This document shows, piece by piece, positions 13,087 through 64,000 of a stretch of DNA of 64,000 nucleotides. The position numbers were made by a program, and so were the translations under genes. Within the stretch, counting starts at the first letter, position 1, and each line of letters opens with the position of its first letter. A model generated the notes under the pieces. The model saw nothing but the letters and a program-made list of their open reading frames with translations, was not told the DNA's origin and searched no databases. Location of the stretch: IMG/VR virus record IMGVR_UViG_3300028735_000004, positions 32,001 to 96,000 of that record. One strand, 5' to 3'. The stretch is from a virus. Lineage: Duplodnaviria > Caudoviricetes.

Positions 13087-13095
13087 TATTCACCT

Positions 13096-37674: not shown

Positions 37675-37688
37675 TATTCCTCATATCT

Positions 37689-38525: not shown

Positions 38526-38526
38526 T

Positions 38527-39525: not shown

Positions 39526-39547
39526 TTTAGTACTCCTTTAGCCCCAT

Positions 39548-39575
39548 ACTATAACTCTGGTACCAAAGATGTCAA
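39548..39575 (-). promoter_or_regulatory. Sigma-70-type promoter TTGACA-16 nt-TATAGT
   Basis: Minus strand reads ttgaca tctttggtaccagagt tatagt, directly upstream of the AAGGAG RBS of 38527-39525. Confidence 0.75.
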
Positions 39576-39580
39576 TACTT

Positions 39581-43205: not shown

Positions 43206-45851
43206 TTATGATACAGTTAATGTATTGGTGCCTTGAGAGGACGAATAACAATTGGTTGGATTATATACCGCTCTAATAGTAAATATTCCAACATCATAGT
43301 CCCAAGGCGAAACGGTAATTGAGGCATAACTTGCAACTAATGTAGCTGAACTAATAAATACTTCTGGACCCGCCGGGTCTCCACCTATTGTTAATTGTTG
43401 ATAATAAAAATCAACAGTTCCATCAGGAGATCCTCCAGAAACATAGGCAGTAAATGTTGTTGTTCCGTGAATTGATATAAACATAGGATCAATTGTTAAA
43501 GTCGTTGTAGTTGAAGTTGGTGAATTAACCTGATATTCAGTAATAGTATCATTGCTGGTATTATAATTACTATCTCCTTGATAATAAGCCTTAATGCGCC
43601 AAGTTCCTGCCGGCACTATACTGTTGCTAATATTGCAGGTCGCCCCTCCAACCGACGGAACAAGTGTAGCTGAACCAATCGTAATTTCAGGAGTGCCCAC
43701 ACGAGGTGCGTATTTAAATATAACCGTTCCGGATGGAGTTCCTGAGCCTGGAAAATTTACAGATACATCAGCGGTGTATGTTGTATTAGAGCCAGCACAT
43801 CCGACACCAGGAGATGCAGATAAAGACACAGAAGTGTTTGCTTTATTCACAGTTTGTACAATAGGATCTGATGTTTTTGGACCAAATATACCGTCTCCAA
43901 GGTATGAAGCAGTTATATTAAATGTTCCGGCGCCAAAAAAAGTAATAGATCCATTACCAATACCCGCTAATAAAGAAGAGGTGGCGACCACAGTTCCATT
44001 TTTTTTAAATTGAACATTTCCGGTAGGAGTTCCATAAATACTTGAGACAGTTGCAATATAATTAATAGTTTCTCCAACTACAGATGGATTTGGATCCGCT
44101 ATCGCTTTTTCAATTGTTATAGATGTTCCATATCCAATTACTTGATGAACTAATGTAGAAGAATATGCCGGCAAATAATTATTATCACCGTAATAAATTG
44201 CTGACAAATAATATGTTCCAGCTGATAAAAATACAGGATTATAATTTAATTGACCTGAAGATAAAGTGCCAGAATACAATGCATCATATCCATCTTTAAA
44301 GAAAATCACATCACCTGTCGGGGTAGCAACAGAGCCGACCACATAAGCACTAAATGTTAAAGTATCGCCTAATTCAGATGGATTAGTGCCTAATGTTTGA
44401 TATAATAAAATAGTTGAAACTGATTTATAAATATCGTGATATAATTCTTGAGATAATCCATTATGATTGCTATCTCCAGAATAAATCGCTGTAAATAAAT
44501 GCGTTCCAGCATTAAAATCATAACCAGAAATAGATGCAGTAGCAACTCCATCGATATTGGACAGAATTGCAGAACCAATTAAATAATATCCGTCATAAAA
44601 ATTAATGCTACCAGAAGGAACGCTACCATAATCACCAGAAACTTTACATAATAAATATATATTAGAGCCATAACCAGATGGATTTGATCCAGGAATGCTA
44701 AAATCTAAATATACTCCGGCTTTACTAACCGTGTAATTTAATGTGGCTGTTTTTGTTTCAAAAACCTCAGTGCCTCTATATATCGCTCTTAAATAATGAG
44801 ATCCTGTAGATAATGAAGAAATTGATAATTCAGTATATCCATCAGATAAATATCCACTACCAAGAAAAGTATAATACCCATCATAAAAATCAACAATTCC
44901 ATCAGGAACCGATGTTGATGTTAATGTTGCATTTAATGTTATAAGTTGATTATAATAAGAAGAAGTTGGAGATGCGGTTAATGTCATACTTACTGGAGTA
45001 TAAACCGGATCTGTAATAACTTGACTTAAAATATTAGAAGTATTAGTTAAATGATTTCTGCTGCCTAAATAAACTGCTGTAATATAATGAGTACCTATAT
45101 CAGCAATTTTAGTAGTGAATACAACTGTACCAGAACCGTCTAATGTTCCAGTTGCTAATAATGTAGTATAGCCATCATAAAAACTTACTCTTCCTTGTGG
45201 TATTCCATAAGAAGAAGATACTTGTGCTGAAAAATTAACTAATTGATTATTGCCGGCCGGATTTAGATTGGATGTTAAATTTACTGTTGTTGAGATTGGT
45301 GAAATTAATTGAGATATTGGTAAAGTAATACTTGGACCATAAAAATCATTACCTACATAATACGCTTTAACTTCATATAATCCGCCTTCAAGGAAAACAT
45401 CTCCGGAATTAGCTACACCTAAATTATTTAACTCTACTTCCTTAATTTCTAAATTATTTGAATAAAATTTTACACGACCTTGAGGAATAGATCCGTCTGC
45501 AGATAATACAGTTGCAGTAAAATTAACAAACTCTCCATAATTAATTGAAAAGTTAGAGCTAATTAATGAAATTGAGGTAGAAATTGGAGTTCTACTAACC
45601 ACATTTTCTATAACAATTGAAGATACGCTTGTGTTGAAGCGGCCCTGACCATCATATTCGGCGATAATATTATTATTTCCTGGATTTAAATCAGATACTT
45701 CTAATTCTGCTTCTCCCCTGGAATTTAATTTTACCCTACCTATTTCTACATTACCATTTTTAAAAACAACAAATCCTTTGGGAATAACAGGAGTATCCAA
45801 AGATATTACTTTGGCTTTTACTTTTACCTTATCTCCTTGTTTAATAACCAT
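43206..45851 (-). CDS. Virion protein of tandem bacterial Ig-like (group 3) repeats
   Basis: About nine roughly 95 aa repeats of T..TL.S..NP...G..V.F.A.V....P.G.V.F.DG....G...L....H...A.Y.G. Confidence 0.88.
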   Translation of the reverse strand: MVIKQGDKVKVKAKVISLDTPVIPKGFVVFKNGNVEIGRVKLNSRGEAELEVSDLNPGNNNIIAEYDGQGRFNTSVSSIVIENVVSRTPISTSISLISSNFSINYGEFVNFTATVLSADGSIPQGRVKFYSNNLEIKEVELNNLGVANSGDVFLEGGLYEVKAYYVGNDFYGPSITLPISQLISPISTTVNLTSNLNPAGNNQLVNFSAQVSSSYGIPQGRVSFYDGYTTLLATGTLDGSGTVVFTTKIADIGTHYITAVYLGSRNHLTNTSNILSQVITDPVYTPVSMTLTASPTSSYYNQLITLNATLTSTSVPDGIVDFYDGYYTFLGSGYLSDGYTELSISSLSTGSHYLRAIYRGTEVFETKTATLNYTVSKAGVYLDFSIPGSNPSGYGSNIYLLCKVSGDYGSVPSGSINFYDGYYLIGSAILSNIDGVATASISGYDFNAGTHLFTAIYSGDSNHNGLSQELYHDIYKSVSTILLYQTLGTNPSELGDTLTFSAYVVGSVATPTGDVIFFKDGYDALYSGTLSSGQLNYNPVFLSAGTYYLSAIYYGDNNYLPAYSSTLVHQVIGYGTSITIEKAIADPNPSVVGETINYIATVSSIYGTPTGNVQFKKNGTVVATSSLLAGIGNGSITFFGAGTFNITASYLGDGIFGPKTSDPIVQTVNKANTSVSLSASPGVGCAGSNTTYTADVSVNFPGSGTPSGTVIFKYAPRVGTPEITIGSATLVPSVGGATCNISNSIVPAGTWRIKAYYQGDSNYNTSNDTITEYQVNSPTSTTTTLTIDPMFISIHGTTTFTAYVSGGSPDGTVDFYYQQLTIGGDPAGPEVFISSATLVASYASITVSPWDYDVGIFTIRAVYNPTNCYSSSQGTNTLTVS

Positions 45852-48800
45852 TATGTTAAGATAATTAGGGTATCATTACCACAGTTGAAAGTTTCTGGAG
45901 TTAATTCAAGTATGTTTTGTGTTTTGCTTGCAGAAACAAATAATGGTTTATTGTTCCAACCTGCTTTTTTAAGATAAACAGTGATATTTAATTTTGTGCT
46001 TAAGGTTTGAAGTGTAAAATCATCAAACAAATTAGCAAAATTTAAATATAATAAACCGGTTTGATGGTCTAAATAAATACCCATTCTACCATCAACTATT
46101 GGACCGCTCATATTATCACAATAATACCCATCCAATAATGGAGAATTAGATTGTAATGAAACCGATATTCTAACCTGATCCTTAAGTAATGCATCCGATT
46201 CTACTACGGAACAATCCGCAAATTTCATAGAATTATATCCAAGTCGAGTTTTACCGTTTCCATCTTGATTGCATATAAAGTCAGCAAATAAGTTTATATA
46301 TTTTTCTTCAACAATCGCTGATGCAGGTAATTCTAAAGTAATTTGACCAACTTCAAAATCTACTTTATAGAAATAACCATCAGATCTTAAAATTTCTCCA
46401 CCTAAGTTCATAACCAAATTGTTAGGTATAAAGAAATCATTTTTGCCAGGATCAAATGCCTCTATAAATGGATAAATATCGCTTGACTTTCCGCTTACAT
46501 TACAGGTATTTATGTTATGACCACTTTGATATGTAAATGCAACTGGAACCATTCTTACATTTGGACTTGTTGTAATATAATAATCATTCCAAGATAATTG
46601 TTTTACTATATTAAATGCAACCGGACTTGTTAAAAGATCTTGGCCATATAAAGAGAAGCCTAAATTATAACCGTCTGCTAAAATATCTGGAACAATATGT
46701 ATTAATGAACTTCTATTATTTATGCTTGAACTATAATCATCATCTCTGTCGGTGAATTGTTCTAATGTTAATTTCAAAACATTAAACTTAGTACCAATTT
46801 TATTGGCAGGAGAGGATGTAGCGGGAAATGGAGGGTTTTTATAAATATAATCAGTTAGTAAGCTTGTATCTACGCTGCTTACGATCATATCTCCATTGAT
46901 ATCAGCCTTATACGCCTGCAATATTACTTCTGGACTATAATATAATTTTTTAATAGTAATATTATTTGGATCAAGTAATGCGGTAATACTAAATGAACCT
47001 ATATTTTTTGGATTAATAGCAGTAGGAATATGAACTTTTAAAGTAGATAAATTAGATAAAGCAGAAAAATTGGTTGATGCACTTGCAAAATTAGCCAAGG
47101 TGCCATCTAAAACATTTACGGTTAAAATACCATCAGTACCGCTTGCTACAACATTTACTCCATCTAATACTTGGAATGTAAGGGGACCATCATCAACGAA
47201 ATAATTAGTTAGAGAAATATAATCTTGTTGTGTTGGTACGGATGTTAAATTTACACCTAATAAATTTTGTGCTATCGCTAAATCATTTTCATCAACAACA
47301 CCATCATCATTTAAATCACCGTATGTTAATGAAATTAATTCACTTCTACAAATTCTATAAAAATTTGTAGGATTAGATATGTTAGGAATAAATTTTGCGT
47401 TATTTAAATTGCCATTTAAGAATTCTGTTACTAAATTTAAAACATCTAAATCATATCGCGGATCTGTAGGATCGTCTATAATTTTAATTAATAATTCGTT
47501 TTTAACTATACAGTATTCTCTTAAATAAGCCGATATAGCGGCCGATAATGCATTATAAGATTTGACATTTTTATCTGAAACAGTGCCTAAAATCAATGGA
47601 TCTGATGTTTGAGTTAATTTTAATAACTCACTATCTTTAATTAAAGATAAGGACGGTTCATATTGTTTAATACTATCTATTGTATTGCCAGTTCTTGCAT
47701 CTTGAACAGGCACGCTTGTATTTTCAACAGCAGAAAGATGAGCGTAATATACATCGTTTCTGACAAAGGATACATTATCTAAACAATAATCAATATTTAC
47801 ACCAGTATTATTATCTAATTTAACTTTCGGTACAGAAACACCCACACCTGCATCATAAGCCTGACCATCTGAAATTTTAACTGCATCAGACCATACTTGA
47901 AACCATAAACTTTCTTCAGAAACATCTACCCAATCATTACCATCAAATAATGTTAATCTGCTTTCTGAAAAAATATTTTCTCCGACAGCAAATTTAATAC
48001 TACACTTATTTGCCGAACCTGCTCTTTTAACGGTTATTACATAATATTTATCTGCAGATATAGCGGTTCCTGCACCAACCGCAGTATTACTGAAAATAAA
48101 ATCAACAGGTTGTGGAACAGTATCTAATACAACTCCACGATCTGCTAAACTATTATAATTAAAACTTAATTGTGCTAAAGGAATATTTGATGGTGGGAAA
48201 TCTATTGCTAATGTCGGTGATATTTCAACCGGACAATCTAATACAGATTGCAATGGATATAAACTAACTATTAAATCACCATTCCATACTAAATCTGCTG
48301 GATTAGATGAATTATCTACGGACATCAATAAGGTAATTTTTTGAATATTACTATTTGATGCTAAAAATTTTTGACCTATTTGAGAAACTACATCATTTTC
48401 TGCCAATTCTCTTAATTGTCTATATCCAGTTTTAATATTTAAGGTATCTAAATTATAACTTGGTAAGGCTTGTTGTAGCATACTTGATAATGAACCGCCT
48501 CCAGAAACAAAGAAATCTCTAAAAAATAAATTTGGTTCTACATCTTGCGCTAACATTAAACTATCTCGAGAAATAGTTAATGGATTAGTTTCTTTAATAA
48601 CAATTCTGCCACCCAAATTAAAAGATAAATTAGCGTCCCCAATGAAATCATTAAAAAATACTTTTAATACTCTAACATAATGGTTTTTAGAAAATTGTTT
48701 TTCATTTGTATGAAACACAAATCTATCATACTGTAATGTATTTTCAAAATTTAAACCTATAATTAATACTTTAACTGTTCTTTTACCAGTAGCCAAAGAT

Positions 48801-49075
48801 CCAGATAATTCAACTTCTAATTGAGATCCTTGATTTTGATCTCTGGGCTGATTTTGAAAATCTATACCCTTGCCATCTAATACGCCAGAAACCAATAAAG
48901 AATCAAATAATTGTTTTTGAGATAATACATCTGGAACTACACCGGATCCAAAATGATTATTAATAATTCCAGTTTGAATTTGATTGTTATAACTTTGTTC
49001 AGTTAATAAATCAGCATCATCAATATTTTGACCATTAAACCATTTATTTTGTGGAGCTGATACCGGTATTCTCAT
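45851..49075 (-). CDS. Large putative baseplate/tail structural protein with dockerin-like Ca-binding motifs
   Basis: In the baseplate operon. GDLNDDGVVDENDL and ADINGDMIVSSVDT motifs. Confidence 0.7.
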   Translation of the reverse strand: MRIPVSAPQNKWFNGQNIDDADLLTEQSYNNQIQTGIINNHFGSGVVPDVLSQKQLFDSLLVSGVLDGKGIDFQNQPRDQNQGSQLEVELSGSLATGKRTVKVLIIGLNFENTLQYDRFVFHTNEKQFSKNHYVRVLKVFFNDFIGDANLSFNLGGRIVIKETNPLTISRDSLMLAQDVEPNLFFRDFFVSGGGSLSSMLQQALPSYNLDTLNIKTGYRQLRELAENDVVSQIGQKFLASNSNIQKITLLMSVDNSSNPADLVWNGDLIVSLYPLQSVLDCPVEISPTLAIDFPPSNIPLAQLSFNYNSLADRGVVLDTVPQPVDFIFSNTAVGAGTAISADKYYVITVKRAGSANKCSIKFAVGENIFSESRLTLFDGNDWVDVSEESLWFQVWSDAVKISDGQAYDAGVGVSVPKVKLDNNTGVNIDYCLDNVSFVRNDVYYAHLSAVENTSVPVQDARTGNTIDSIKQYEPSLSLIKDSELLKLTQTSDPLILGTVSDKNVKSYNALSAAISAYLREYCIVKNELLIKIIDDPTDPRYDLDVLNLVTEFLNGNLNNAKFIPNISNPTNFYRICRSELISLTYGDLNDDGVVDENDLAIAQNLLGVNLTSVPTQQDYISLTNYFVDDGPLTFQVLDGVNVVASGTDGILTVNVLDGTLANFASASTNFSALSNLSTLKVHIPTAINPKNIGSFSITALLDPNNITIKKLYYSPEVILQAYKADINGDMIVSSVDTSLLTDYIYKNPPFPATSSPANKIGTKFNVLKLTLEQFTDRDDDYSSSINNRSSLIHIVPDILADGYNLGFSLYGQDLLTSPVAFNIVKQLSWNDYYITTSPNVRMVPVAFTYQSGHNINTCNVSGKSSDIYPFIEAFDPGKNDFFIPNNLVMNLGGEILRSDGYFYKVDFEVGQITLELPASAIVEEKYINLFADFICNQDGNGKTRLGYNSMKFADCSVVESDALLKDQVRISVSLQSNSPLLDGYYCDNMSGPIVDGRMGIYLDHQTGLLYLNFANLFDDFTLQTLSTKLNITVYLKKAGWNNKPLFVSASKTQNILELTPETFNCGNDTLIILT

Positions 49076-49106
49076 TTTTATCTCTTTATTATATATATCT
49101 TAAAAA

Positions 49107-52100
49107 TCATTTGTATATGATAAAACTTCTAGAGTTAGCTGGTTTTAATTTTTTAACTAAAATTTCTAATATTTCTTGTAATTTATCATTTTGACTAATT
49201 AATTTAAATGAATCAAATACTGTGATAGTAAAATCAAATAAACCTATCTCATCGTTGCGCAATTTAGCGAAATCTTCAACTTTTTCAATTACTTTATCAA
49301 AGTCTAAAAGTAAAGTTGTATATAAATCTTCGACAACCGGCAACACTATCTCGGTATTAGAACTGTAATTTACATCTAATGATTCGCCATAAGGCATATA
49401 TAAAGGCCTTGATACATTACTAATTCTTAAATTATCTATTAAGGCAAATGCACCATTTTTACCACTATGATCTGTTCCAATATAAAATTCATTTATAGTA
49501 TCTTTAAAGGTAATTGAAGAAATAATGCTTGATTCTCCAACATAAGATGAGCCCATAACTACACCTTGACCTAATAGTAAGCCGCTTCCAAATAAAACAT
49601 TGCCTCTTTCATATCCATCTACAAATAATCTAATTTCATCTTTACCTAATCCGCCATTAACTTTGTAAGATGCCTTTACTCTATGCCAAGAGTTTCTGGT
49701 CCAGAAAATAGGTGCTCTAATTTGGTAATCTAATGAATCGGCTCTTATATTAAAATTAATATATCCAGATGGATCTTTATATATAGAAATTCGATCTCCA
49801 TTTGTACCAGTTGGTTCATAACTTACTATTACCGGTGTATTTGGGCTTGGTAGTGGTTTTCTTAAATAAATAGTTTGTTTATCACTGGAAATAGTTCCGT
49901 TAATAAAGTAATCATAATCTTTATCACCGTAAAGTAATTTGACACTAACAATTTTTGATGCCCTACCTTTAATTTTAACTTCCACATTATTTACGCTTGT
50001 GGTTTTTTCTGATACTACCGAAGATGCGTCAAAGTAGAAACGATATGCTATATCGTTCCAGGAATCAAACAATGTATTAATCCAAAACTCTATAGTTCCT
50101 TCATTTTTGTTTAAAATTCCAAGATTTTCGAATTTCAAAGGAGCATTAGTAAAACAAATACTTTGATTAAATTTATCATTTACTTTCTCAGAAGCCTGAA
50201 TGTATTGATGGTTTGAAGTAATGTAAAAATCAGCCTTATTAACGAATGGTTTTTCATCAAATGTAGAATAAAAAATCAAATTCGATGTTAATTTAGGAGG
50301 TTTAACCGAATTATAATGTTTGGTAATAGTTTCTTTTGAAGAACTAACTACCTCTCCAATTCTAACATCACTATACATAGCAGAAGATATTCTTACTTCA
50401 TCTAAAATCCCACCTAATTGATTTTTTTCATCATAACTGGATCCAAGATAAAAATAAGGAATGTTAGATTTAAATGGTATTGTTAAATATGTATAATAAT
50501 CAAACTCATACATTCCTTTAGTTAGAATATATGGAATGCCAGCAAACCTATCTTCTTCAAATGTAAAGAAGCCGTTTTGTAATCCACTACTATAAGTATG
50601 TAAATTCAAAACTTCATATACGCCATCGGTAAATGTGGTTAATGGTAATGGATAAGAAGATGACAATTGAGATAAAGTTAAACTCATTCTATCAGAAGAA
50701 ACTCCAGTTATATTATAGAAACCGGCAACTGCAGACGGAGATATTATTCTTAAATAATTACCAATTAAAGTATCTGAAAAATGAGCGTTTTCGTCTCTAA
50801 CTACATATCCATCTGATCCATCATTATAAAGAGTATTACCTACAGAAACTTGATAACTAAATCTAATGACTGGAGAAACTATCTCATATCCATCAGCAAG
50901 ATATGCCGTATTTATATCTTTATATGTAATAGCATTCGCTTCTTTAACCGCTAATAATAAACAGTCTTTGGAAGTATCTATTGGTTTGCAATTAACTTGT
51001 ACTGTATTAACTAATAAAAATAAATTAGAAGTATTAAGAGAGCCAACATCAGTAAAAGTTAAAGTTTCGATAACATTTTCTTGCAATCCAGAAATTGGAT
51101 TTAATCTAATGCCATCTATATTAACGCTAACTGATGTGCTAAAATCTATATTGGTGCCATTAATTTCTACAGTTAAAAATCTTCCGCTGTCTGTATTAGA
51201 TGGCTGATCCGTTTTTAAATTATTAGAATTGAATACACCGAATGATAAGGTGGAATTGCTTGGTCCTATTGCTGTTCTATCTAATAATACTTTATAAATT
51301 TTAACATCATTTAAAGAAACGGGTGGAGGTAATCTTGTCGGTATTACATTAGCATTATTACCCCAAATATAATATTTTTGTTTTAACCTTCTATTATTAA
51401 TACCTAATGTATTAATTAATACTATATCGTTAATTAGTGCTTTATCTCTAATTGTCAAAACCGCGTTATAATAACCATCTGTGCTTTCACTTATTTCGTA
51501 CGCTGGATGCAAGGCTCTAACGCCTGGTATTTCTTCATCTTCATTTTTATAAATATAAAAATTGGTGCCAGAAAAAGATGATGGAAGAGTGTCATTTATA
51601 ATTAACGAATTGGCTGATACACTTAAAATAGTATAGACATCACTTAAACCATCTATTTTAATTAAATATCCTGGATTAATTTTAGAGCTTATAAAATTAG
51701 ATGATGAAGAATAAACAATGCTGGCGCCAATAGTACCTTGCAAATCATTATTAGTTAAGCTTGTGTGTAATAAAGAAACAGCAATATTGGGATAAATATC
51801 AATAGGAGTTTTAACACTGAATGATGTTTTATTTACTGAAAACTTACCATTCTGTATTGTTAATGGCATAACAGATGCTAATGTTAAATTATTTCCATTA
51901 ACAAATGTAATATTATATCCAGTAGTTGAAAAACCCTCTTCTTCTATATATAAAGTATCACCAATATTAATGCCATAAGCACCAAAATTAATTGATGAAT
52001 TAACGATATTAGATCCGAAAGTTGTCGATAAATCAGTAGATGAAACAATATTATTATTAATGAAACCTATTATTTGTTCCGGATTAATAGTTCTATATTT

Positions 52101-55100: not shown

Positions 55101-56063
55101 AAAAATATTTTCTAAAGAAAAATTGGTGTCATTTAAAATTAAATCACTTATTTTTACTTGATTATTTTTTAAAAGTAAATAAGTAAAAGCATATTGGCTA
55201 TCATATTTTGATTCAAGTAATTGGTAGCCGTATTTTTCTATATCGTAAGTATATGGAGATTTATCAGTATAATTAAAAACTATACTATTTACTTTTGTAA
55301 TAAATTTTTTATTTAAACTTAATACAAATGTTTTTAAATTAAAAAATCCGTTTTTATTTTCTGAGGCCGTCTTTAAATCTTCAGAATAATCAATTCCTTG
55401 TAAAGTAATTGGATCAATTGGAAAATCATCAAAAGATAATGTTTTTGACAATTTTGTGCCAGTTAATTGTTTTCCAACTCTTATTATTTCGTAAGCGCCC
55501 TCTTCTGATAATCTATCAAATGGACCTCTACCTCTTGTCTTTTTTTCATCTTTAATTTCTACCGAGAGATAGTTTTCATTCTTAACTTGCCTAATATCGT
55601 ATAAACCTTTAGAAAGATTTATCGCTAAACTATCTATATATTTACTAATTACTGAAGTATTATCGGTGTTATAAATACTGTCTCGTAAATAATTATTTAT
55701 ATTAGTTTTTATAACATTATCATTTTCTACTGGACCAATAATTAAATACCTGTTAGTAATACCATCTTCAAATAATAAAGCATCTCCGTTTAAAGATTTA
55801 AATTTACTGTCAGATGTTGAATTAAAAGTTAAGAAAAATGCTGCAGATGGTGTTAAAGGATAGGAATTAATAGTTAGAATATCATCAACTACTGATACGC
55901 TTAAAACACCGGGATTATCTACACCTGGCGTCTGAGAAACAATGCTTACATTAGAGGTATCTATACTTAAAGCCAATTTTTCAGTAAATCTGGCTTTAAT
56001 TTCAGTATTACTTACTATTTCTACACCTATTAAACGAAGATTTTTCAAATTAAACACTCTCAA
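49107..56063 (-). CDS. Giant baseplate-wedge-like protein (2318 aa) with LamG/concanavalin-like domains
   Basis: Follows baseplate J. DRERYRDCL..GPSLTAIK and terminal KLKPANSR resemble gpI-type wedge proteins. Two EGT(F/I)E.W...LFVDG...ID..RIS LamG-like sets. TTG start (56063 or 56048). Confidence 0.72.
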   Translation of the reverse strand: MRVFNLKNLRLIGVEIVSNTEIKARFTEKLALSIDTSNVSIVSQTPGVDNPGVLSVSVVDDILTINSYPLTPSAAFFLTFNSTSDSKFKSLNGDALLFEDGITNRYLIIGPVENDNVIKTNINNYLRDSIYNTDNTSVISKYIDSLAINLSKGLYDIRQVKNENYLSVEIKDEKKTRGRGPFDRLSEEGAYEIIRVGKQLTGTKLSKTLSFDDFPIDPITLQGIDYSEDLKTASENKNGFFNLKTFVLSLNKKFITKVNSIVFNYTDKSPYTYDIEKYGYQLLESKYDSQYAFTYLLLKNNQVKISDLILNDTNFSLENIFNISVKYQYKDTSISIDPTTIEVSTVLSSGRETLPPLKNIFNLKHAPITKANGKIGSVGDVVFYNLSAPPNSNVKHPAFLYEIPYRVDYLPSRVGEYAIDYETGTVYVYGESQEMSGTGATPPVIVYNYKYSFKEDIDYVYDESLLELVSLPNGNLKEISADISFSFENVLAKDIDYIANIHKEALNERIGNNLIALNALKAQNSPITNVFRIYNETSGELYKFVRFNNDKIYFSYNIPPNIQSLVRERASFDYVSNETLFINTIITTVDPNIKIFKILLNNNNIVGSSEDGLGFSENSTVNFSDLNIFVNELYFDNFISETDNLTRLNQVGYYQVDYKNGVIYCAVDINQDFNIGSVSYKRSYINTQYPHILSVEDLYYQFSSISQKEKTFAYSDIFDGSAYVENLEYLNERFLNNDQLYPYVLLNNKIGSFDNSEFVPGVSNNVKYIRGLYELNDLYNNIQPINFANAASASGKIVSVSSLDFEEYQIVQYDGYQYYITLNNPLYYLSPNISLNISVIKASDGYELWDNSGSYVLGNNLTLVLSGINNPQNGDYVVVNYSFTINDLSSLVIDYNKGDFYIDYTYLADEIVISYEYGDNVLDFRNSSALNPNEDYYVSYKVGALRDALLKNFGLLIDIPILSTFDTLFDRERYRDCLIAAMQSFISGPSLTAIKNIASIISHTPAEVKESAFTNWSLGYNLLSQEEIITSGDLNLLPSKYGSGVLIKNSDEYIKLPIAGNLKIEEGTFESWIIPEWNGLDNLADLTISILKNGVPLPENQIFIGAAEYHPSYVVENNKYVIKLNKNDRVDGTPNKYKDGVFIYYDKDLSGDFSRWYLAIQDGYDDGYIVKNYDITIETNGKFYDSKFTSVSKPYSGSLFTSVSKINYKITNDINPQQEITFLADTTHYILDYAENENKNRISLFKDETGYLNFKIFDSNKTSYLISSDISAWKAGEKHFVATSWKLNAKTGRDEIHLFVDGQEVPNIFKYGEKLKPYLHEKYRTINPEQIIGFINNNIVSSTDLSTTFGSNIVNSSINFGAYGINIGDTLYIEEEGFSTTGYNITFVNGNNLTLASVMPLTIQNGKFSVNKTSFSVKTPIDIYPNIAVSLLHTSLTNNDLQGTIGASIVYSSSSNFISSKINPGYLIKIDGLSDVYTILSVSANSLIINDTLPSSFSGTNFYIYKNEDEEIPGVRALHPAYEISESTDGYYNAVLTIRDKALINDIVLINTLGINNRRLKQKYYIWGNNANVIPTRLPPPVSLNDVKIYKVLLDRTAIGPSNSTLSFGVFNSNNLKTDQPSNTDSGRFLTVEINGTNIDFSTSVSVNIDGIRLNPISGLQENVIETLTFTDVGSLNTSNLFLLVNTVQVNCKPIDTSKDCLLLAVKEANAITYKDINTAYLADGYEIVSPVIRFSYQVSVGNTLYNDGSDGYVVRDENAHFSDTLIGNYLRIISPSAVAGFYNITGVSSDRMSLTLSQLSSSYPLPLTTFTDGVYEVLNLHTYSSGLQNGFFTFEEDRFAGIPYILTKGMYEFDYYTYLTIPFKSNIPYFYLGSSYDEKNQLGGILDEVRISSAMYSDVRIGEVVSSSKETITKHYNSVKPPKLTSNLIFYSTFDEKPFVNKADFYITSNHQYIQASEKVNDKFNQSICFTNAPLKFENLGILNKNEGTIEFWINTLFDSWNDIAYRFYFDASSVVSEKTTSVNNVEVKIKGRASKIVSVKLLYGDKDYDYFINGTISSDKQTIYLRKPLPSPNTPVIVSYEPTGTNGDRISIYKDPSGYINFNIRADSLDYQIRAPIFWTRNSWHRVKASYKVNGGLGKDEIRLFVDGYERGNVLFGSGLLLGQGVVMGSSYVGESSIISSITFKDTINEFYIGTDHSGKNGAFALIDNLRISNVSRPLYMPYGESLDVNYSSNTEIVLPVVEDLYTTLLLDFDKVIEKVEDFAKLRNDEIGLFDFTITVFDSFKLISQNDKLQEILEILVKKLKPANSRSFIIYK

Positions 56064-59000
56064 TATTAATTATAATATTATTTGCTAAAAAATATTCATT
56101 TTTTTGAGCAGTAATAGTTAAAACTTGACCAACCTCTCCTGTTTTATTAAAATATATTACCCGAGAACGACTTACTCCAGCTACAGATTGAGCTACACTT
56201 ATTAGATCTGAACTATTAATTGTATCACCAAGCACATTTGTATTTATAGCATTGGTAATTTGATCTTTTACATTCTGAACCACAGTTGTAGATGAGCTAA
56301 GGAAATCTGCTTTAATAACTATATTCATAGTAAGATCTATACTTAATGCATTTGCTGATTTTACTAAAACATCAGCATTAATGGGACGGCTACTTTCAAC
56401 TGTTAATGTAGTATCTCCAATTAATCTGTTATAATTATATCGTATAGTAATTCTTTCATTTTGTTTTGGCGCCAAATAATCATAAAATACCTTATATCTC
56501 GATCCTGTAGCAGGTTGATTAAAATAAGATAATGTAAATTTTGTAGATAAAGATGAGGAAAACCCTCCAGATATGTAGAATTTTTCTATAAATGCAAAAT
56601 TTTTATTTGTATATAACGATCCATTTCTTGTAAATTGAATATCTTCATACTGGTTATCTAATATATAGTAGAATGTAATTCTAAACTTATCTCCAATTTT
56701 AGGCTCGTTAGCAATATTTTTTGCTGTTGAAGGTAATATGAACTCAAAATTATTCAATGAAACATCATTTAATACTTCATCAGAATAATACACATTATTC
56801 TTGATTTTACTACCAATTAAATCATAATCATTTAATACTGATAAAACCTCATCATTTGTAGAAACTGAAACTTTTTCTAAATTAGTAATTCTAACTAATG
56901 ATAAATAAGATGATAACGAAGATACGGAGGACAAACCAAGATATTTCTTTAACGCCTCAATAACATTTTGTTTTAATCCATTATTGACTGCGGTAAATAC
57001 AATATCTGAAACTTTATTTAAAGTTTTACCCCTAACTGTTAAAATACCAGAGTTATTAATTTGATCTGACACAATAAGATTTAATTTAGATGGAGCTTGT
57101 CTTAAAGGTTTAGATCTAAAAAATAAAACATAAACTCTATCTCCAACTGACGCTAAAGTATCTTTTGGTAAATATAGTTTATAATTATTAAAATCAATAG
57201 AACAACTATAAGTCCATAAATCTTTACCATCTGCAATTCTAATAACTGAAATTTGACTTATATCTAAGTTTTCTAAATTATTTGCTATAACAATACTATT
57301 ATTTGTTAAATCATAACTAATAATATCATACATAGCATTATTAAACGGATATAAAGAATTTTTAATATTAACTTTCTTACCTAAAATATTCGAAATTGAA
57401 CTAAGAATTAAAGTGGGAGCATAAAATGAGGCTTGTCTATCGTTTATCAATGGAACTAAATAACCGTCTGTTCCAGAAAGTATAGATAAATTAGTAGTAG
57501 GATCAATTATGTCAAATGATACTGATGTTTCCGCTGTAAATTGATAAAATGGTATAAAAAATTTATCGGCAGAAAAATCATAATCTAATAACTGAATATC
57601 TCCTCTAATAAATGAATTTGCAAAAGTAAATGGCTGAGTTCTTCTTAAATCATCTGAATAATAAAGAACTAATACATTTTGTCCTATCGCCGGTGAGTTA
57701 AGACCGCCTAATATAATTTGATATGTATTATTTGTATCTGTAGTAATGGTGCCTTTATTATTTGCGTTCCATAATTCAACATTATCAATTAATCTTATTA
57801 TAGAAACAATATGTTTGTCAGTAATATTATAATCTGTTGATTTTGCGTTTAATGTAATAAAAAATTCATTAAATGCATTTTGCTGTATTACTTGATTTTC
57901 TTTAATTAAGGTGTTGTTAGCAAAATTATTTAAAAACCCAACAGTAGAATTGGTTATAAACCCATTACCCAATCTGCTTAAAGGCATATTAGCAATACCG
58001 CATACCAAAGCATCCTGTGTATTAGCAATATAATTAACCTTAATCATATAAGATGAAATTGTGGAGCTAAAATTAGAGACAGGAATAGTTATTTGGTTAT
58101 TAATAAAATTACCATTAATATTATTTACTTTAAAAACATCAGTTGTATTATAAAATACAGTAAGTCTTGTATTTTCGGTTGCTGCAGTATCTGTTGGTAA
58201 AATAATCGTAATATTATATTTAATTTGAGATCCAACAACAACTCTGTCATTAAAGAATACCCCATCACCTTCAGATGTATTATAAACCTCTAAATCAGTG
58301 TTTTGTAATTTTATGCTATCTATATTTAATAACTCAGAATTTAAAGCGTATAAATTAACCGCTAATCTTCCAGTAAAAGTGCCAGAAGAAACAACTGTAG
58401 TAATACCATCGATTTGATTAAATAAATTTGTAGAAATAACCGAATTAATATTATGTTTTACTGTTCCAACATAAAAAGTATTATCATTGTTTAATTCAAA
58501 CAAAACATCTTCTTGTCTGATTTGATTTGATAGACCCCAATCAACGCTATCTTCTACCGATCTTAAATTATCATTAAATGTAATACCGTCATAATCACTA
58601 TATCTATCATAATCTACAACCCAAGTATAATCTACCTGCAAAATATCACTTGATGATGGTAATGTGTTTCCGGAGATCTTAATTCTTCCAGTGGTATTTA
58701 GTGTGCCATCACCATCTGGGTTTTGATCCGTAATTAAATATCTCTCTCCGGTATTAGTATTAAAAACTCTTGTTATTGATGTCGCCGGAGTGTGTAATAA
58801 CTGAACTACAGATCTATCAGATGATACCTGGCTATTTTCATTAGTAATTAAAATATTTTGTTGAATTTTAGGTATAGCCAACACATCAGTAAATGTTAAG
58901 TTATCTTGTCCTGCAAATTTACCTTTAACTTTATCTTCTTGATATAATGATATACGATCTGATACCCATTTGAATTTATCAAACCCCCAAGGGCTACCGC

Positions 59001-60129
59001 CGTATAATCCTTCATCTTTAATTAATTCATAATTTCCAGAAACTCTACCAAGACTATCAACACTTTTAGGAACAAAATTATTTCCACTTAATGATCCTGA
59101 AACTTCAACTATTTCTTGTACTGGTTGCGCTGGTAAAACTGAATTTGCTATATTATCTATTCTTTTTCTATTAATAGTTTTATTAACATCATCTGCTATT
59201 TGCCCAAGAATATAATCATTTTTATCATCAGCTGGGTTATTATTATTACTTTTGTCTTGATAAATAAAACTATCTATATATTCAGCAATTCTATTTCCTA
59301 ATATGATAATATCTACCTTACCGCCTTGACCTTCTGACAATATTGTATAACTGCCGTCGTTATTCTTTTTAACTACCGTTCCATCTCTTGTCATTAATGG
59401 ATCGCCTGGCTCAATTACTAATGCATCTAATACGCTTGGATCCGATAAAGCAGTATTTCTATATCCTAAGCTGGTTCCAATATTTGAACCACTAAAAATT
59501 GCTAAAACTCTATTTCTAAAAGTAGCATCATCTTCTTGATCTGAGCCACCAAAAAATGGCAATGGGTTCATTACATTAGAAACGCCAGAAATAAAAGTTT
59601 TATTAATACTGTATTTAGATATATTGCCGGATGAACCAGGAGCTGTTGCCTGAACCGCAACTTCAACAGCATATTGATCTGAAATATTTAAGAAATCTAA
59701 ATCTGCTTGATATTTAGCGGCAAGAGATCTATAAGCATTTAAAGAGTTAGGATTAACTGTTATTGAGTTTAAAATAGCAAAAGTTGCTCCATTTGAAGCA
59801 TAAACCAAATCACCTTTAACCAAAGATACTGTGGCCGGAATAGAACTAAATGTAAAAATAACTGTTCCAGAGGATTTAACGGAACTTTTCCTGGTGGCAC
59901 CGAAATTTTTGGCTAATTTATCTAAATCACTACCGCTAACTAATCGTAAGGATTGTAAGTTTGATATTTTAGATAATTCGTCATATAGCAAGGATAATTG
60001 GCTTGCTGGCATTTCAACAAATAAATCTCTAATAACACTACCTGGGTTAAGCGTAGCATCTGGCTGAACTGTTTTAAAATAATCTAATAAATTTAAAATT
60101 ATTTCATTAGCACTACGAATATTTACCAT
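56050..60129 (-). CDS. Baseplate J-like (gp6-like) wedge protein with a large insertion
   Basis: PGSVIRDL, GSDLDKLAKNFGATRK, VAVQATAPGSSGNI and GGSDQEDDATFRNR. Confidence 0.88.
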   Translation of the reverse strand: MVNIRSANEIILNLLDYFKTVQPDATLNPGSVIRDLFVEMPASQLSLLYDELSKISNLQSLRLVSGSDLDKLAKNFGATRKSSVKSSGTVIFTFSSIPATVSLVKGDLVYASNGATFAILNSITVNPNSLNAYRSLAAKYQADLDFLNISDQYAVEVAVQATAPGSSGNISKYSINKTFISGVSNVMNPLPFFGGSDQEDDATFRNRVLAIFSGSNIGTSLGYRNTALSDPSVLDALVIEPGDPLMTRDGTVVKKNNDGSYTILSEGQGGKVDIIILGNRIAEYIDSFIYQDKSNNNNPADDKNDYILGQIADDVNKTINRKRIDNIANSVLPAQPVQEIVEVSGSLSGNNFVPKSVDSLGRVSGNYELIKDEGLYGGSPWGFDKFKWVSDRISLYQEDKVKGKFAGQDNLTFTDVLAIPKIQQNILITNENSQVSSDRSVVQLLHTPATSITRVFNTNTGERYLITDQNPDGDGTLNTTGRIKISGNTLPSSSDILQVDYTWVVDYDRYSDYDGITFNDNLRSVEDSVDWGLSNQIRQEDVLFELNNDNTFYVGTVKHNINSVISTNLFNQIDGITTVVSSGTFTGRLAVNLYALNSELLNIDSIKLQNTDLEVYNTSEGDGVFFNDRVVVGSQIKYNITIILPTDTAATENTRLTVFYNTTDVFKVNNINGNFINNQITIPVSNFSSTISSYMIKVNYIANTQDALVCGIANMPLSRLGNGFITNSTVGFLNNFANNTLIKENQVIQQNAFNEFFITLNAKSTDYNITDKHIVSIIRLIDNVELWNANNKGTITTDTNNTYQIILGGLNSPAIGQNVLVLYYSDDLRRTQPFTFANSFIRGDIQLLDYDFSADKFFIPFYQFTAETSVSFDIIDPTTNLSILSGTDGYLVPLINDRQASFYAPTLILSSISNILGKKVNIKNSLYPFNNAMYDIISYDLTNNSIVIANNLENLDISQISVIRIADGKDLWTYSCSIDFNNYKLYLPKDTLASVGDRVYVLFFRSKPLRQAPSKLNLIVSDQINNSGILTVRGKTLNKVSDIVFTAVNNGLKQNVIEALKKYLGLSSVSSLSSYLSLVRITNLEKVSVSTNDEVLSVLNDYDLIGSKIKNNVYYSDEVLNDVSLNNFEFILPSTAKNIANEPKIGDKFRITFYYILDNQYEDIQFTRNGSLYTNKNFAFIEKFYISGGFSSSLSTKFTLSYFNQPATGSRYKVFYDYLAPKQNERITIRYNYNRLIGDTTLTVESSRPINADVLVKSANALSIDLTMNIVIKADFLSSSTTVVQNVKDQITNAINTNVLGDTINSSDLISVAQSVAGVSRSRVIYFNKTGEVGQVLTITAQKNEYFLANNIIINIESV

Positions 60130-60136
60130 TTTTGCC

Positions 60137-60571
60137 TTATGTTAGATTATTTGCCGTAAATCCGGTACTTACCAATTTAAAAGCTTTATTGAAAACTTTA
60201 ATTAAAACTTCTATTAGCCTTGGGTCTACATTGTTCCTAATTATAGATATATCACTAATTAGCGCTATTTGTTCTTGAGGAGATACTTTTTGCCCACTTA
60301 TAACCTGTAATTCTTGAAGTTTCTTTAAATTCTCTAAGGCATTCTGTAATTGGCTACTGGCAAGGGTAAATGATATATTGTCGTCTAATACTGATCCTAC
60401 TAAACTTTGACCAATAGCAGAGCCGTACCAAGGTTGATATAAATTACTACCAGCTTTTGTCAAACATATTTTTAATATATCTTGAACTAATTTGTCTTCA
60501 TTTGTCGTAGTAACCAGCTCACCACTATTAATAACTAAATCTCCAGCAGATATTTTTAAATCAAAAGACAT
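60137..60571 (-). CDS. gp25/GPW-like baseplate wedge protein
   Basis: DLKI..GDL...KLVQDILKICLT..GS..YQPWYGS. Immediately upstream of baseplate J. Confidence 0.8.
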   Translation of the reverse strand: MSFDLKISAGDLVINSGELVTTTNEDKLVQDILKICLTKAGSNLYQPWYGSAIGQSLVGSVLDDNISFTLASSQLQNALENLKKLQELQVISGQKVSPQEQIALISDISIIRNNVDPRLIEVLIKVFNKAFKLVSTGFTANNLT

Positions 60572-60584
60572 AATTAACCTTAAC

Positions 60585-60593
60585 ATTATACCA
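60585..60593 (-). promoter_or_regulatory. Extended -10 element TGGTATAAT upstream of the gp25-like gene
   Basis: Exact TGnTATAAT in a short intergenic gap. Confidence 0.45.
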
Positions 60594-60623
60594 AATTATT
60601 AGAAAAATTTAAAATAAATATAA

Positions 60624-62213
60624 TTATTGGTTAAACTGAGGATCTGTATAATATTTTTGAACTATTTTATATATTTCGGCGGCTTTTTTCTCAAAACTTT
60701 TAAGTGCATCATTTACGCTTAATCTATTTACATTTGTTGCAGAAATTAAAGAAGTATATCTTTTAAAAGCATCGTCATCAATTAATCCTAATAAAACGCT
60801 TAAGTCAGAACCCCATAAAGCAGCTTGTATTACGAAAATATCAATTAATCCAAGACCACTAAACTCTCCCAAAAGCATTTCTATTTCTTGAAAAGCATTT
60901 ATTCCATCAAGACCAATTTTATTGCGTTTTTTAACAAGTTTATCTAATTGATCGGCGTAAAAATCATCAATATTATGAGTTTCTCCAAGAATTATATCAT
61001 CTATATTAGCAAAAGAAAATTTACCTAAATCGTTATTTTTTCTGCCAATTTTTAACTGAATGTCAGCCAAAATCTTCTTGTTTTTTAATTCTGCAATATT
61101 TTTTTCAATTTCTTTATTTCTGACAGTATCTCCATAATCAACATCATTTAAAGTTAAACCATATTCTGGACCAAATTTATTATTCGGTATTGGTTGAAAA
61201 TTAATTTTAATATTAGTATTATTAATAATATGTATATTTGAAATTAACGATTTAACCAATGCTCTAATTATATTTAAGAATTTTTTTAATATAATAAGAT
61301 CTGCTTTGTTTAAATCTTGTAATAAAACAGCTCTAATAGTTTCCTTTTCATCATCCAATGTTGAACTGTTTTGAGTAATTGCATTTAACGCATCATCAAT
61401 TACTTTATCCAAATTGTCAGTTGTTTCATCTTTAAAACTTGAATTATAATATTTAGTTTTAATTACCTTTTCAATGTATGGACGCCTAAGGATATCTGCT
61501 TCGCTTATCATAGCATCATTTTTAGATAAAAATGGCTTACAAATTAAATTTTTTAATGGAACTACTGTAAAATCAATTTTTGGATTAACGATAAATGGTT
61601 TAATAATATGTTTTGCTTTAAAATCCACTGTAATTTCACTTGACTTATCTTGAAATACTGATGTTTTAATAAAATTTTTGCTGGATACATTAAATAATTG
61701 GGCGCTAAATGCCTGAGGATCATTTAATTCAAGTATTTGATCTGAAAAATCTCTTACATAAATATTTGCCAAATTTAACGCCACTGCATTAATATCTTGT
61801 TTAGAAAAAATTTGAGAATATTTTTTATATATATCTTCTCTATCATTTAATAACTTAATAACATTTTTGTTTAAATTTCCCGCTATCTTAATATGTTTTT
61901 CGTATTTATCATTATCTAAATTAACATTTTTATCAAATCCTGGACTATAAAAATTATTATCTTTATCTACTATTGGAAATCCTATCATTCTGTAAAAAGC
62001 ATTACATCTGCTTTCTTGATAATCTGGAGAATACCTATCTCCGGCTCTTATTTCATCTATATTGTTAATGGTTAATGATCCAGATATATCATTTATATTT
62101 CTATGGCTTCTATAATTATCAATTTCAGACACTATTGTAGTAAATAAATTTTTTATATTTATATTTACAACATCCTGATCTTGATAATTAATTTTTTTAT
62201 CATTATTAACCAT
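60624..62213 (-). CDS. Hypothetical protein in the baseplate region
   Basis: 529 aa ORF coupled to its upstream gene. Confidence 0.7.
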   Translation of the reverse strand: MVNNDKKINYQDQDVVNINIKNLFTTIVSEIDNYRSHRNINDISGSLTINNIDEIRAGDRYSPDYQESRCNAFYRMIGFPIVDKDNNFYSPGFDKNVNLDNDKYEKHIKIAGNLNKNVIKLLNDREDIYKKYSQIFSKQDINAVALNLANIYVRDFSDQILELNDPQAFSAQLFNVSSKNFIKTSVFQDKSSEITVDFKAKHIIKPFIVNPKIDFTVVPLKNLICKPFLSKNDAMISEADILRRPYIEKVIKTKYYNSSFKDETTDNLDKVIDDALNAITQNSSTLDDEKETIRAVLLQDLNKADLIILKKFLNIIRALVKSLISNIHIINNTNIKINFQPIPNNKFGPEYGLTLNDVDYGDTVRNKEIEKNIAELKNKKILADIQLKIGRKNNDLGKFSFANIDDIILGETHNIDDFYADQLDKLVKKRNKIGLDGINAFQEIEMLLGEFSGLGLIDIFVIQAALWGSDLSVLLGLIDDDAFKRYTSLISATNVNRLSVNDALKSFEKKAAEIYKIVQKYYTDPQFNQ

Positions 62214-64000
62214 TAACTACCTGCATCCAAAGCAACATCACCCTCATCTCTTCTAACCGCAGCATCAGGTACAGAAGTAAGAACGAATGTATATAATAAT
62301 TCTTTAATAGACACTGATGGTAATTCGTTTATATTTGAAGGATTATTAAAAATACTAATATAGTTATTATTAAATGAAACTTTTATATTACCATTACCTG
62401 GTTCTGAACTGGTAATATTGGCTATAAAAGCACCATATCCATCATAAGCAAAATTTGATATCTCGCCTAAAGTAATATCTGCCTTTAATTTTTCCGCTAA
62501 TTGAGATGCGATACTTGAAGGTAATTTATTAATTAAAGTTGCACCATTATTATCTGCCAAAACAACTGATACTTGAATTGGAAGGGATGTAAATTGAATT
62601 GACGGATCTAATTCAAAATTACTTTTATAAGGGTTATATGCGTTTAATATAATGTCTAAAGCCGCTTGCTCTGTATCTTGTTGTAATTTACCTAAACAAT
62701 CTGTAATATCGGTTTGAAGCTTATCTGCAGTTTCGAGAGAGATATTTTCTCTAAAATTGTTAATAGCATTTAATACACATTGATTTGCTGCATCTATGTC
62801 GGGCAGCGGAATATTTTTAATAGCATTAAAATCTACATTTGAGAAAATAGTTGAATTTATTAAATTTTTATTCTGACTTACTTCTGGGATACATCCTGAA
62901 GTTATAAGTGATTCACCAATTAATACATAATGATTAATTTTAAACGAATACTCTACATCAGAGAATAAAATACCATCATTTACTAATGTTGGACTGGCTG
63001 AAATATTGTCTGGTAAATGAATTAATGTATTTAATGTTGCTTGATAACCGTCTGATGGAAGAACTTTCATTACCGTAGTTCCATCGTCCTCAAATACTAA
63101 ACCGCCTTCTAAAGAAACAGTTCCGTTATAGGGTGCAATTAAATTATTTTTATAATCTTTAACGCCATCTGTGGGTGGAGCTACCATTATGCAATTTTTA
63201 ATTCTTAAATATCTTGGTCCTAATAAATCTACTCTTCCAAATACAACTGGATCATAAAACACTCTAATATCAACAGTATATGGGGCTTGATCTGGCGGTG
63301 TATCTTTGCTGTAAAATTTAGTTAAAGGAAAGAAAATCTTTTGCTTTTCTAAATCTTGAGGATCGGTAATATTATTAAATTGCATCAATCCAGTTAATGC
63401 CGGATCATATAATTGCCAACTTTCATTTCGTAAAGAATTATAAATTGGTGGGAAGCCTGGAGGTAATGATAATCCTGAATCTACTCCAACTCTACTAAAA
63501 TATTGAAGAAATCCTGCCGAACCAACAATCTCTTTATTATTTTTAATAAAAGCAGGACAAACATCTGGGGTACAACAACCATCCGAAGAACTATCGCTGC
63601 AAGGAGGTAAGCTAAAATTAGCTAATCTTAAAGCATTGATTATTTGAAACAGTATTGCTACAACTCCTAATACTGCAAATAAATTTTGAAATAAACATAG
63701 TAAATCACCAATTTTTTTAGTAATTGCGAAAATACTATCATTATCTAATCTTTGAACTGCTTTACTTAAAATATCGATGTTTTGTTTGATTAAAAGAATA
63801 ATTGTTAATAATCTATCTAAAATATATGTTAATAATAACAATATTAATAATAAAATAGATAAAATCATTATTGGTAATGCAAATAATGGAAATAAAGCCA
63901 AAAATTCTGGCAAACAAACTCTAAAAAGTTTAGTTATTGCACTGGCTATTTTAAAAGGATTTGGTATGCTACAAACAACTTCAATTAAACATAATATTAA
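62213..64000 (-). CDS. Putative structural protein with hydrophobic helices, a Cys cluster and a C-terminal Ig-like domain (5' partial)
   Basis: The frame stays open to the window end (LIICLIEVVCSIPNPFKIASAITKLFRVCLPEF). Two DGY motifs. Confidence 0.75.
   Translation of the reverse strand, partial: LILCLIEVVCSIPNPFKIASAITKLFRVCLPEFLALFPLFALPIMILSILLLILLLLTYILDRLLTIILLIKQNIDILSKAVQRLDNDSIFAITKKIGDLLCLFQNLFAVLGVVAILFQIINALRLANFSLPPCSDSSSDGCCTPDVCPAFIKNNKEIVGSAGFLQYFSRVGVDSGLSLPPGFPPIYNSLRNESWQLYDPALTGLMQFNNITDPQDLEKQKIFFPLTKFYSKDTPPDQAPYTVDIRVFYDPVVFGRVDLLGPRYLRIKNCIMVAPPTDGVKDYKNNLIAPYNGTVSLEGGLVFEDDGTTVMKVLPSDGYQATLNTLIHLPDNISASPTLVNDGILFSDVEYSFKINHYVLIGESLITSGCIPEVSQNKNLINSTIFSNVDFNAIKNIPLPDIDAANQCVLNAINNFRENISLETADKLQTDITDCLGKLQQDTEQAALDIILNAYNPYKSNFELDPSIQFTSLPIQVSVVLADNNGATLINKLPSSIASQLAEKLKADITLGEISNFAYDGYGAFIANITSSEPGNGNIKVSFNNNYISIFNNPSNINELPSVSIKELLYTFVLTSVPDAAVRRDEGDVALDAGS

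Follow-up and report, generated by a model that had tools for sequence, protein, structure and literature searches.

The tripeptide Asp-Gly-Tyr (DGY) occurs at about 12-20 times the chance frequency in the outer baseplate and fibre proteins of a huge tailed phage and of well over a hundred of its relatives. The DNA analysed here is a stretch of 64,000 nucleotides from this phage (Duplodnaviria; Caudoviricetes), positions 32,001 to 96,000 of the IMG/VR record IMGVR_UViG_3300028735_000004; we refer to the whole stretch as the window, and coordinates are those of the window unless another genome is named. The motif is found in its baseplate-region genes at 43206-64000, beside a cluster of glycosyltransferase genes, and again in a group of fibre-like genes at 9411-16202. 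It can be said firmly that the motif is genuine and specific to this lineage, and that selection acts on it in the surface loops of distal virion proteins. As for its role, sequence comparison leads us to favour a site that is read in trans, most likely a candidate tyrosine glycosylation sequon for the adjacent cluster, and we give this reading a probability of roughly 40%.

The DGY excess and its restriction to one clade

The region 43206-64000 encodes 19 DGY, all of them in frame on the minus strand, which carries nearly all genes of this AT-rich window (GC content about 29%). The first-pass annotation of this DNA had counted 19 copies in five open reading frames (ORFs), divided 5, 3, 8, 1 and 2, and both the count and the division are exact. 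Every context that it quoted, including the tandem QDGYDDGYI, is present in the translations, and all four glycine codons are indeed in use (GGT, GGA, GGG and GGC); the tyrosine codon is TAT at every one of these sites. Five copies belong to an Ig-like protein of 881 amino acids (43206-45851) with nine Big_3_5 repeats (Pfam PF16640, E = 5e-108, nine stretches), at 45168-45176 (FYDGYTT), 44874-44882 (FYDGYYT), 44835-44843 (LSDGYT), 44586-44594 (FYDGYYL) and 44286-44294 (FKDGYD); a PDB sequence search with this protein gave no match. Three (46667-46675, 46373-46381 and 46124-46132) belong to a peripheral baseplate protein of 1074 amino acids with dockerin-like calcium loops (45851-49075), hereafter protein N. 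The giant wedge protein, hereafter W (49107-56063; 2318 amino acids), which ends in a C-terminal LamG domain (Pfam Laminin_G_3), has eight: the first four, with the tandem pair among them, at 53616-53624, 53526-53534, 52572-52580 and 52560-52568, and the last four at 51471-51479, 50886-50894, 50805-50813 and 49611-49619. A baseplate J-like protein of 1359 amino acids (56050-60129; Pfam Baseplate_J, E = 2.5e-22, residues 67-252) has a single copy in its C-terminal extension (57460-57468). The last two (63044-63052 and 62435-62443) are in a baseplate-region protein whose 5' end lies beyond the window (62213-64000) and for which Pfam and PHROG searches returned no match. On the same strand, a gp25-like sheath initiator (60137-60586; Sheath_initiator, E = 3e-5, under the Pfam cut-off) and a protein of 529 amino acids (60624-62213) have no DGY at all, and these are the inner-baseplate contrasts to the proteins listed above.

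Composition alone predicts 1.5 DGY in 43206-64000 (Poisson p = 6e-15) and a first-order Markov model predicts 4.6 (p = 4.5e-7), while 20,000 within-protein shuffles gave a mean of 1.48 and a maximum of 8; the Markov model and the shuffles together rule out a bias of composition or of dipeptides. DGY is the strongest outlier of all tripeptides, ten orders of magnitude ahead of the runner-up (p = 3e-5). Nor can a single repeat copied many times account for the excess, as only four of the 19 sites are homologous repeats; when these four Ig repeats are collapsed to one site and the tandem pair to another, 15 sites remain (p = 7e-11). The window has 35 matches to the corresponding DNA pattern, GAYGGNTAY, and 33 of them coincide with frame 0 of the coding strand; the signal therefore lies at the level of the protein, and a DNA-level motif is ruled out. 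We also set aside the target of a diversity-generating retroelement, in view of the spread over at least ten genes, the four glycine codons and the conserved sites, although no search for a template repeat was made.

The phenomenon extends past the region that had originally been pointed out. Five fibre-like genes on the minus strand (9411-16202) encode 14 further DGY where 0.53 are expected (p = 1e-15). Eight of these are in the ORF at 14298-16202, which has a tail-fibre PHROG match; the DUF5907 match to 9411-11297 is weak (E = 0.003, under the Pfam cut-off). The remaining ORFs of the window, about 40 in number, were scanned and contain none.

It is the whole tripeptide that is enriched. Of the 85 DG dipeptides in the virion ORFs of the window, 33 are followed by Tyr (7.5x) and none by Phe or Trp; of the 50 GY dipeptides, 33 have Asp in front and none has Asn, and Tyr never follows NG (0/55). 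The same holds in a relative with a 359 kb genome and 38% GC, referred to as G002, which has 74 DGY for 14.7 expected, grouped in two structural blocks. Within these blocks 62 of 204 DG dipeptides continue with Tyr (8.9x), compared with 0.7x for Phe after DG and 0.4x for Asn before GY; Tyr after NG in G002 stands at 0.6x. The other 342 ORFs of G002, where 12 of 298 DG dipeptides continue with Tyr (1.1x), are a clean internal control. Outside the virion blocks, with two Kelch-like ORFs set aside, there are 5 DGY for 10.3 expected (p = 0.06), a test of avoidance that is partly circular, as the borders of the blocks were set after the DGY map had been seen. Since neither Asn nor Glu is accepted in place of the Asp, and neither Phe nor Trp in place of the Tyr, the carboxylate of the former and the hydroxyl of the latter both matter. 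Beyond the three residues there is little to see: across 123 independent alignment columns no flanking position is conserved, hydrophobicity is at background, and the sole flank signal is the tandem DGYxDGY. A sequon would likewise be short and invariant, and would depend on one particular side chain as its acceptor. Two known motifs that contain similar residues were considered and rejected. Calcium-binding DxDxDG loops of the EF-hand or dockerin type require Asp or Asn at positions -2 and -4 from the Asp of DG, which are absent but for a few sites (for example NDGSDGY), and the flanks of DGY do not match those of a tyrosine corner.

We compared these proteins with three outgroups, namely T4, phage G and the uncultured 485-kb phage LR745208, whose baseplate J protein is 25% identical. 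None shows an excess: the distal virion proteins of T4 have 4 DGY in 9,188 amino acids (about 1.9 expected), the tail and baseplate module of phage G has 2 (about 2.2 expected) and the baseplate proteins of LR745208 have 1 in about 5,200 amino acids. These counts rule out DGY as a general trait of myovirus baseplates and fibres. The Big_3_5 domain offers a second comparison, for which we took 150 representative proteins (1,408 repeats) from an exhaustive HMMER search. Outside the clade, Tyr follows the conserved G.V.F.DG in 7 of the 1,408 repeats (0.5%; 0.2x), where the usual residues are A, T, S and G, and DGY as a general property of Big_3_5 is ruled out in turn. The sole exception in the list is P0251, a full-length protein that is 37% identical to the Ig-like protein of the window and carries its DGY in the same four repeats. 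In the window protein, DGY stands at the homologous F-x-DG of repeats 3-6, and repeats 1, 2 and 7 read NGN, SNN and NGT. The first-pass annotation had stated that the residue after such DG turns is normally variable, and had named Tyr at these positions in homologous domains outside the clade as one refutation of its idea; the external domains have Tyr there in the 0.5% of repeats just given, so that the idea is not refuted on this point and the Tyr is specific to the clade. Within the clade, the excess is present in relatives at 25-63% identity and at GC contents from 25% to 49%.

Turnover, conservation and structural setting of the sites

Homologues of protein N number more than 280 and every one is on a huge-phage contig. 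In an alignment of 59 members of this family, there are on average 4.5 DGY per protein where 0.2 are expected, spread over 37 columns. The 58 homologues of W average 7.6 DGY for 0.51 expected, in 79 alignment columns, of which 40 are singletons and 4 are common to at least half of the sequences; residues 1-780 of W account for only 6 of the 442 occurrences in the family. DGY occupies more distinct columns in the W family than any other tripeptide, SSS included, compared with 9 for DGF, 8 for NGY and 0 for DGW. Against this turnover, two sites, W1162 and W2149, are invariant in 58/58 homologues and lie deep inside conserved domains. The DGY of the baseplate J protein is likewise conserved in 8/8 full-length relatives, which have two to four DGY each, some at other columns, and homologues of the protein at 62213-64000 have between none and three. 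The folds that bear the motif include Ig-like and LamG domains, the C-terminal extension of baseplate J and, in a relative, Kelch and beta-roll domains.

The alignments also indicate how the sites come and go. Columns switch to DGY from DSA/DSQ, DVN/DAN, DEN/DDN, DIN/DVT or NG[VILM], and intermediates are rare. Where DG is kept and the Tyr is lost, the replacement is mostly small or polar (S, T, N or D), also V or I, and almost never Phe. As each of the avoided variants is one AT-favoured mutation away, DGY must be selectively held once formed, and formed repeatedly. The first-pass annotation had proposed that Tyr was convergently selected after existing DG turns in unrelated folds. Recurrent independent gains in unrelated folds are what we see; the part that does not hold is the restriction to the last residue, since whole tripeptides switch and many of the changes from D-x-z to DGY are coupled double changes. 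In the wedge homologues of the relatives L002 and L003, at columns of about 1170-1180 where the window reads DGYDDGY, there is a triple tandem, DGYSDGYSDGYS, from which it follows that DGY can also expand through short in-frame duplication.

The suggestion that DGY density might predict structural genes is upheld as far as specificity goes, but it is not sensitive and picks out distal tail proteins only. In G002 a single DGY is present in the sheath protein and none in the large proteins encoded upstream of the baseplate. Two further observations were made in G002. A Kelch-repeat protein encoded far from the tail genes (L017:9016-10266, corresponding to G002 69016-70266) has five DGY, four of them at the DG turn of a blade and three reading DGY..[ML]FGG, and an LFGG-type protein (G002 52126-53055) has two. 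Either these are unrecognised virion proteins or DGY is not strictly limited to the virion.

AlphaFold2 models were obtained for the full protein N (predicted local distance difference test score, pLDDT, 84.5) and for residues 780-1900 of W (pLDDT 78.6). In the former, the sites at residues 899 and 982 are in inter-strand loops and that at residue 801 is in a short helix; in the latter, six of seven sites are in inter-strand loops, and the tandem DGYDDGY forms a nine-residue hairpin loop. Eight of the ten modelled sites of the window are therefore in loops joining two strands, with the Tyr at the loop-to-strand border. When all DGY columns of each family are mapped onto the models, about 60-70% fall in loops, loop insertions or loop-to-strand borders, whereas loops make up 54-56% of the models. 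In fold, the N model resembles both lectin-like domains and the proteins of phage baseplates and fibres. Together with the substitution patterns, this predicted secondary structure suggests that the DGY sites are exposed and face outwards. Placement in loops and insertions of peripheral domains, with turnover of position, is what would be looked for in a sequon and is found here, the exposure being a matter of the models. It should also be mentioned that protein N contains EF-hand calcium loops of the dockerin type I kind at residues ~585-614, with GDVNGDGxIDxxD twice in the family consensus; they may serve in cohesin-like docking or form part of a calcium-dependent tail module.

A glycosylation cluster beside the tail genes and the possible readings of DGY

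Directly downstream of the baseplate and Ig genes, on the same strand, is a glycosylation cluster (36709-43191), each gene of which was assigned through a Pfam match: a GT4 glycosyltransferase (42070-43191), a methyltransferase (41402-42073), a GT2 glycosyltransferase (40704-41420), a GT2-like gene (37698-38657) and an NDP-sugar epimerase/dehydratase (36709-37674). In all related loci with enough downstream sequence, the baseplate and Ig genes are directly followed by a GT4 orthologue (24-63% identical), and GT2, GT2 and the epimerase usually come next in these relatives; the loci span GC contents of 25-49%. Three loci appeared to have no GT4, but in one of them the gene is just past the flank that had been fetched and the two others are short fragments that end before its expected position. 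In the outgroups, the 20 kb that follow the baseplate J gene were compared: those of phage G have no annotated glycosyltransferase, and in those of LR745208 a tblastn search gave no homologue of the cluster.

We may wonder at this stage whether the cluster and the motif belong to one system. In the mechanism that we propose, the conserved GT4-GT2-GT2-epimerase cluster, joined in this phage by the methyltransferase, would be the putative reader of DGY. The Tyr hydroxyl of exposed D-G-Y turns would receive a glycan from the enzymes of the cluster while the proteins are in the cytoplasm, either ahead of assembly or in the course of it. The outcome would be a sugar coat on the distal tail, the attachment points of which may drift while their number is kept, like the sequons of viral envelope proteins. 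We favour a site read in trans because the motif is minimal and context-free, because it needs the Tyr hydroxyl and because its density is kept amid turnover; further, DGY is limited to one protein class and always travels with the glycosyltransferases.

Several points weigh against the glycosylation reading. In the reference models, roughly one DGY column in four falls in a strand or a helix. Bacterial Tyr O-glycosylation, as known from S-layers, is the work of membrane oligosaccharyltransferases and not of soluble GT4 enzymes, and a search for characterised relatives of the GT4 gave no specific one. The cluster could glycosylate Ser/Thr, DNA or a polysaccharide instead. We found no lineage that has lost the glycosyltransferase cluster alone or DGY alone, and the co-occurrence thus amounts to one evolutionary event: the association is complete but counts once, because it comes from a single clade. 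For the proposal in its full form, namely that a phage-encoded Tyr O-glycosylation in the cytoplasm, carried out by the GT4-GT2-GT2-epimerase cluster, uses DGY as its sequon and sugar-coats the distal tails of the clade, these comparisons leave us with a tentative and, in our estimate, doubtful candidate.

Exposed turns with Asp and Tyr could also be binding hot spots in their own right, which would hold a ligand (host capsule, S-layer or mat-matrix glycans) with no enzyme to read them and would give the tail many weak adhesive contacts, like Tyr/Asp/Gly-rich antibody loops or Hoc-like Ig domains. Such a role is favoured by the fact that the sites occupy loops of peripheral domains of the lectin-like, Ig-like and LamG types, and by the requirement for the Tyr hydroxyl and the Asp carboxylate, both of which are in use in sugar-binding sites. 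The fast positional turnover is typical for host-range regions, and tandem DGYxDGY expansions exist. One would have to accept, however, that the same context-free triplet binds usefully in dozens of unrelated loops of at least ten proteins. Moreover, there is no enrichment of DG followed by Trp, the residue that most commonly stacks against sugars, and the invariance of W1162 and W2149 is a better fit to a structural role or a tag. On balance we consider binding by the turns themselves somewhat unlikely.

That eight of the ten modelled sites are in inter-strand loops with the Tyr at the border would suit a purely structural role just as it suits a sequon. Here D-G-Y would be a hairpin-closing turn that stabilises extracellular all-beta proteins, with neither reader nor ligand: the Asp would form the cap, the Gly would be left-handed and the Tyr would open the next strand. 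DG is already a conserved turn in Big_3_5 and Kelch repeats, and homologues without the Tyr often have DGV, DGI or DGT at these sites. Yet turn propensity would tolerate N-G, Phe and beta-branched residues, whereas NGY and DGF are avoided although one AT-favoured mutation away. Stabilisation of this kind also sits poorly with the low frequency of Tyr (0.2x) at this position in external Big_3_5 domains, with the lack of any such preference in other myovirus baseplates or in the non-virion proteins of the phage itself, and with flanks that are only background-hydrophobic. We therefore regard a structural role as the sole explanation as rather improbable.

At the level of the motif, the evidence for a glycosylation sequon would serve equally well for some other trans-acting reader. 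As an acceptor or a docking site, DGY might undergo Tyr phosphorylation, sulfation or cross-linking, or it might be recognised by the neighbouring methyltransferase, by an assembly chaperone or by a decoration protein. An acidic residue before Tyr generally favours Tyr-directed enzymes, and this phage does have a methyltransferase within the cluster. However, that gene is present in just 4 of 49 related loci and no kinase or sulfotransferase is seen near the module in the window. We hold a reader of another kind to be quite unlikely. Finally, an artefact of chance, composition, AT-rich codon bias, a DNA motif or repeat copies can be dismissed almost entirely: four of the five sites in the Ig-like protein do belong to homologous repeats and an AT-rich genome raises Tyr, Asp and Asn, but the excess persists after repeat collapse (15 for 1.5 expected), under the Markov model and in the coding frame, and it is alike in relatives from 25% to 49% GC with none in the rest of the same genomes.

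Neighbouring genes, known systems and implications

The rest of the window carries replication and nucleotide-metabolism genes typical of huge phages. The large subunit of ribonucleotide reductase (21278-24742, minus strand) contains an intein, itself equipped with an HNH endonuclease domain, and has a TSCPD domain at its end; a PIN-PhoH fusion (18376-20898, minus strand) has a LAGLIDADG insertion resembling an intein, and an IMPDH-like ORF (3-1583, plus strand) contains a LAGLIDADG segment. A TubZ/PhuZ-like tubulin (34413-35774, minus strand; Tubulin and TubZ-like_C) adjoins a GIY-YIG homing endonuclease (33221-34120). The fibre cluster at 9411-16202 is flanked by genes for an M24 methionine aminopeptidase (17048-17836, minus strand) and a flavin-dependent oxidoreductase-like protein (7059-8267, minus strand). 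Two plus-strand ORFs, 43594-44013 (139 amino acids) and 50866-51207 (113 amino acids), are nested within the minus-strand Ig and wedge genes and are probably spurious.

Full-text literature searches on the DGY or Asp-Gly-Tyr motif found no published description. The motif often fills the DG turn of Big_3_5 and Kelch repeats (G.V.F.DG in the former, the DG before Y.FGG of the blades in the latter), but this clade has Tyr where external Big_3_5 domains have A, T, S or G; Kelch repeats elsewhere have a basic or polar residue after DG. As regards evolutionary behaviour, there is a likeness with the glycan shields of enveloped viruses, in which the number of N-x-S/T sequons is kept and their positions turn over in surface loops. 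DGY too is a minimal motif, and its count per protein is kept while loop positions come and go. The two differ nevertheless in motif, chemistry, compartment and kind of virus, and N-x-S/T is read by a host oligosaccharyltransferase.

The general O-glycosylation sequon of Bacteroidetes, D-(S/T)-(A/I/L/V/M/T), resembles DGY in being three residues long, in starting with Asp, in having a hydroxyl acceptor and in occurring on many unrelated surface proteins. Its acceptor, however, is a Ser or Thr right after the Asp and transfer takes place in the periplasm onto exported proteins, whereas DGY has an intervening Gly and a Tyr hydroxyl, and the virion proteins are made in the cytoplasm. The Bacteroidetes system is discussed in PMC8698959, and Bacteroidota are predicted as hosts of related huge-phage lineages (PMC12619734). 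A Tyr hydroxyl does serve as acceptor in bacteria whose S-layers are Tyr O-glycosylated, such as Paenibacillus alvei (SpaA) and Thermoanaerobacter (PMC2943079), and here too the glycans are linked to the proteins of a surface array. In these S-layers the Tyr sites are few per protein, no phage is involved and PMC2943079 mentions no consensus; the pathway ends in a membrane O-oligosaccharyltransferase, unlike the soluble GT4 and GT2 enzymes of the phage. Among phages, the precedent is that of mycobacteriophages, whose virions bear experimentally shown glycans and which encode their own glycosyltransferases (Freeman et al. 2023, Cell Host Microbe 31:1216, PMC10527164; cited in PMC12619734). There the glycans are reported at the C-termini of capsid and tail-tube subunits; in the present phage the genes for capsid and tube are outside the window, and DGY is concentrated in distal tail proteins instead. 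The huge phages share with these mycobacteriophages glycosyltransferase genes next to structural genes and, by our proposal, a sugar coat on exposed virion proteins; they would differ in that the candidate sites are not C-termini but D-G-Y turns of distal baseplate and fibre proteins, with Tyr as the putative acceptor.

For the clade itself, DGY provides a specific marker for distal tail proteins among genes that are mostly unannotated, and it clearly exemplifies a convergence that recurs and in which several residues change together. If an enzyme does read DGY, the motif would be a new and very simple protein-modification code, transferable to other proteins. Phages beyond the actinobacteriophages would then be seen to decorate their host-recognition apparatus, with a bearing on host range, on evasion of recognition by hosts or grazers and on the stability of particles in mats and sediments. 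Should that modification be glycosylation, the glycosylation code would be new, and the sugar coat would be the earliest report of a glycan shield from the tail of a phage.

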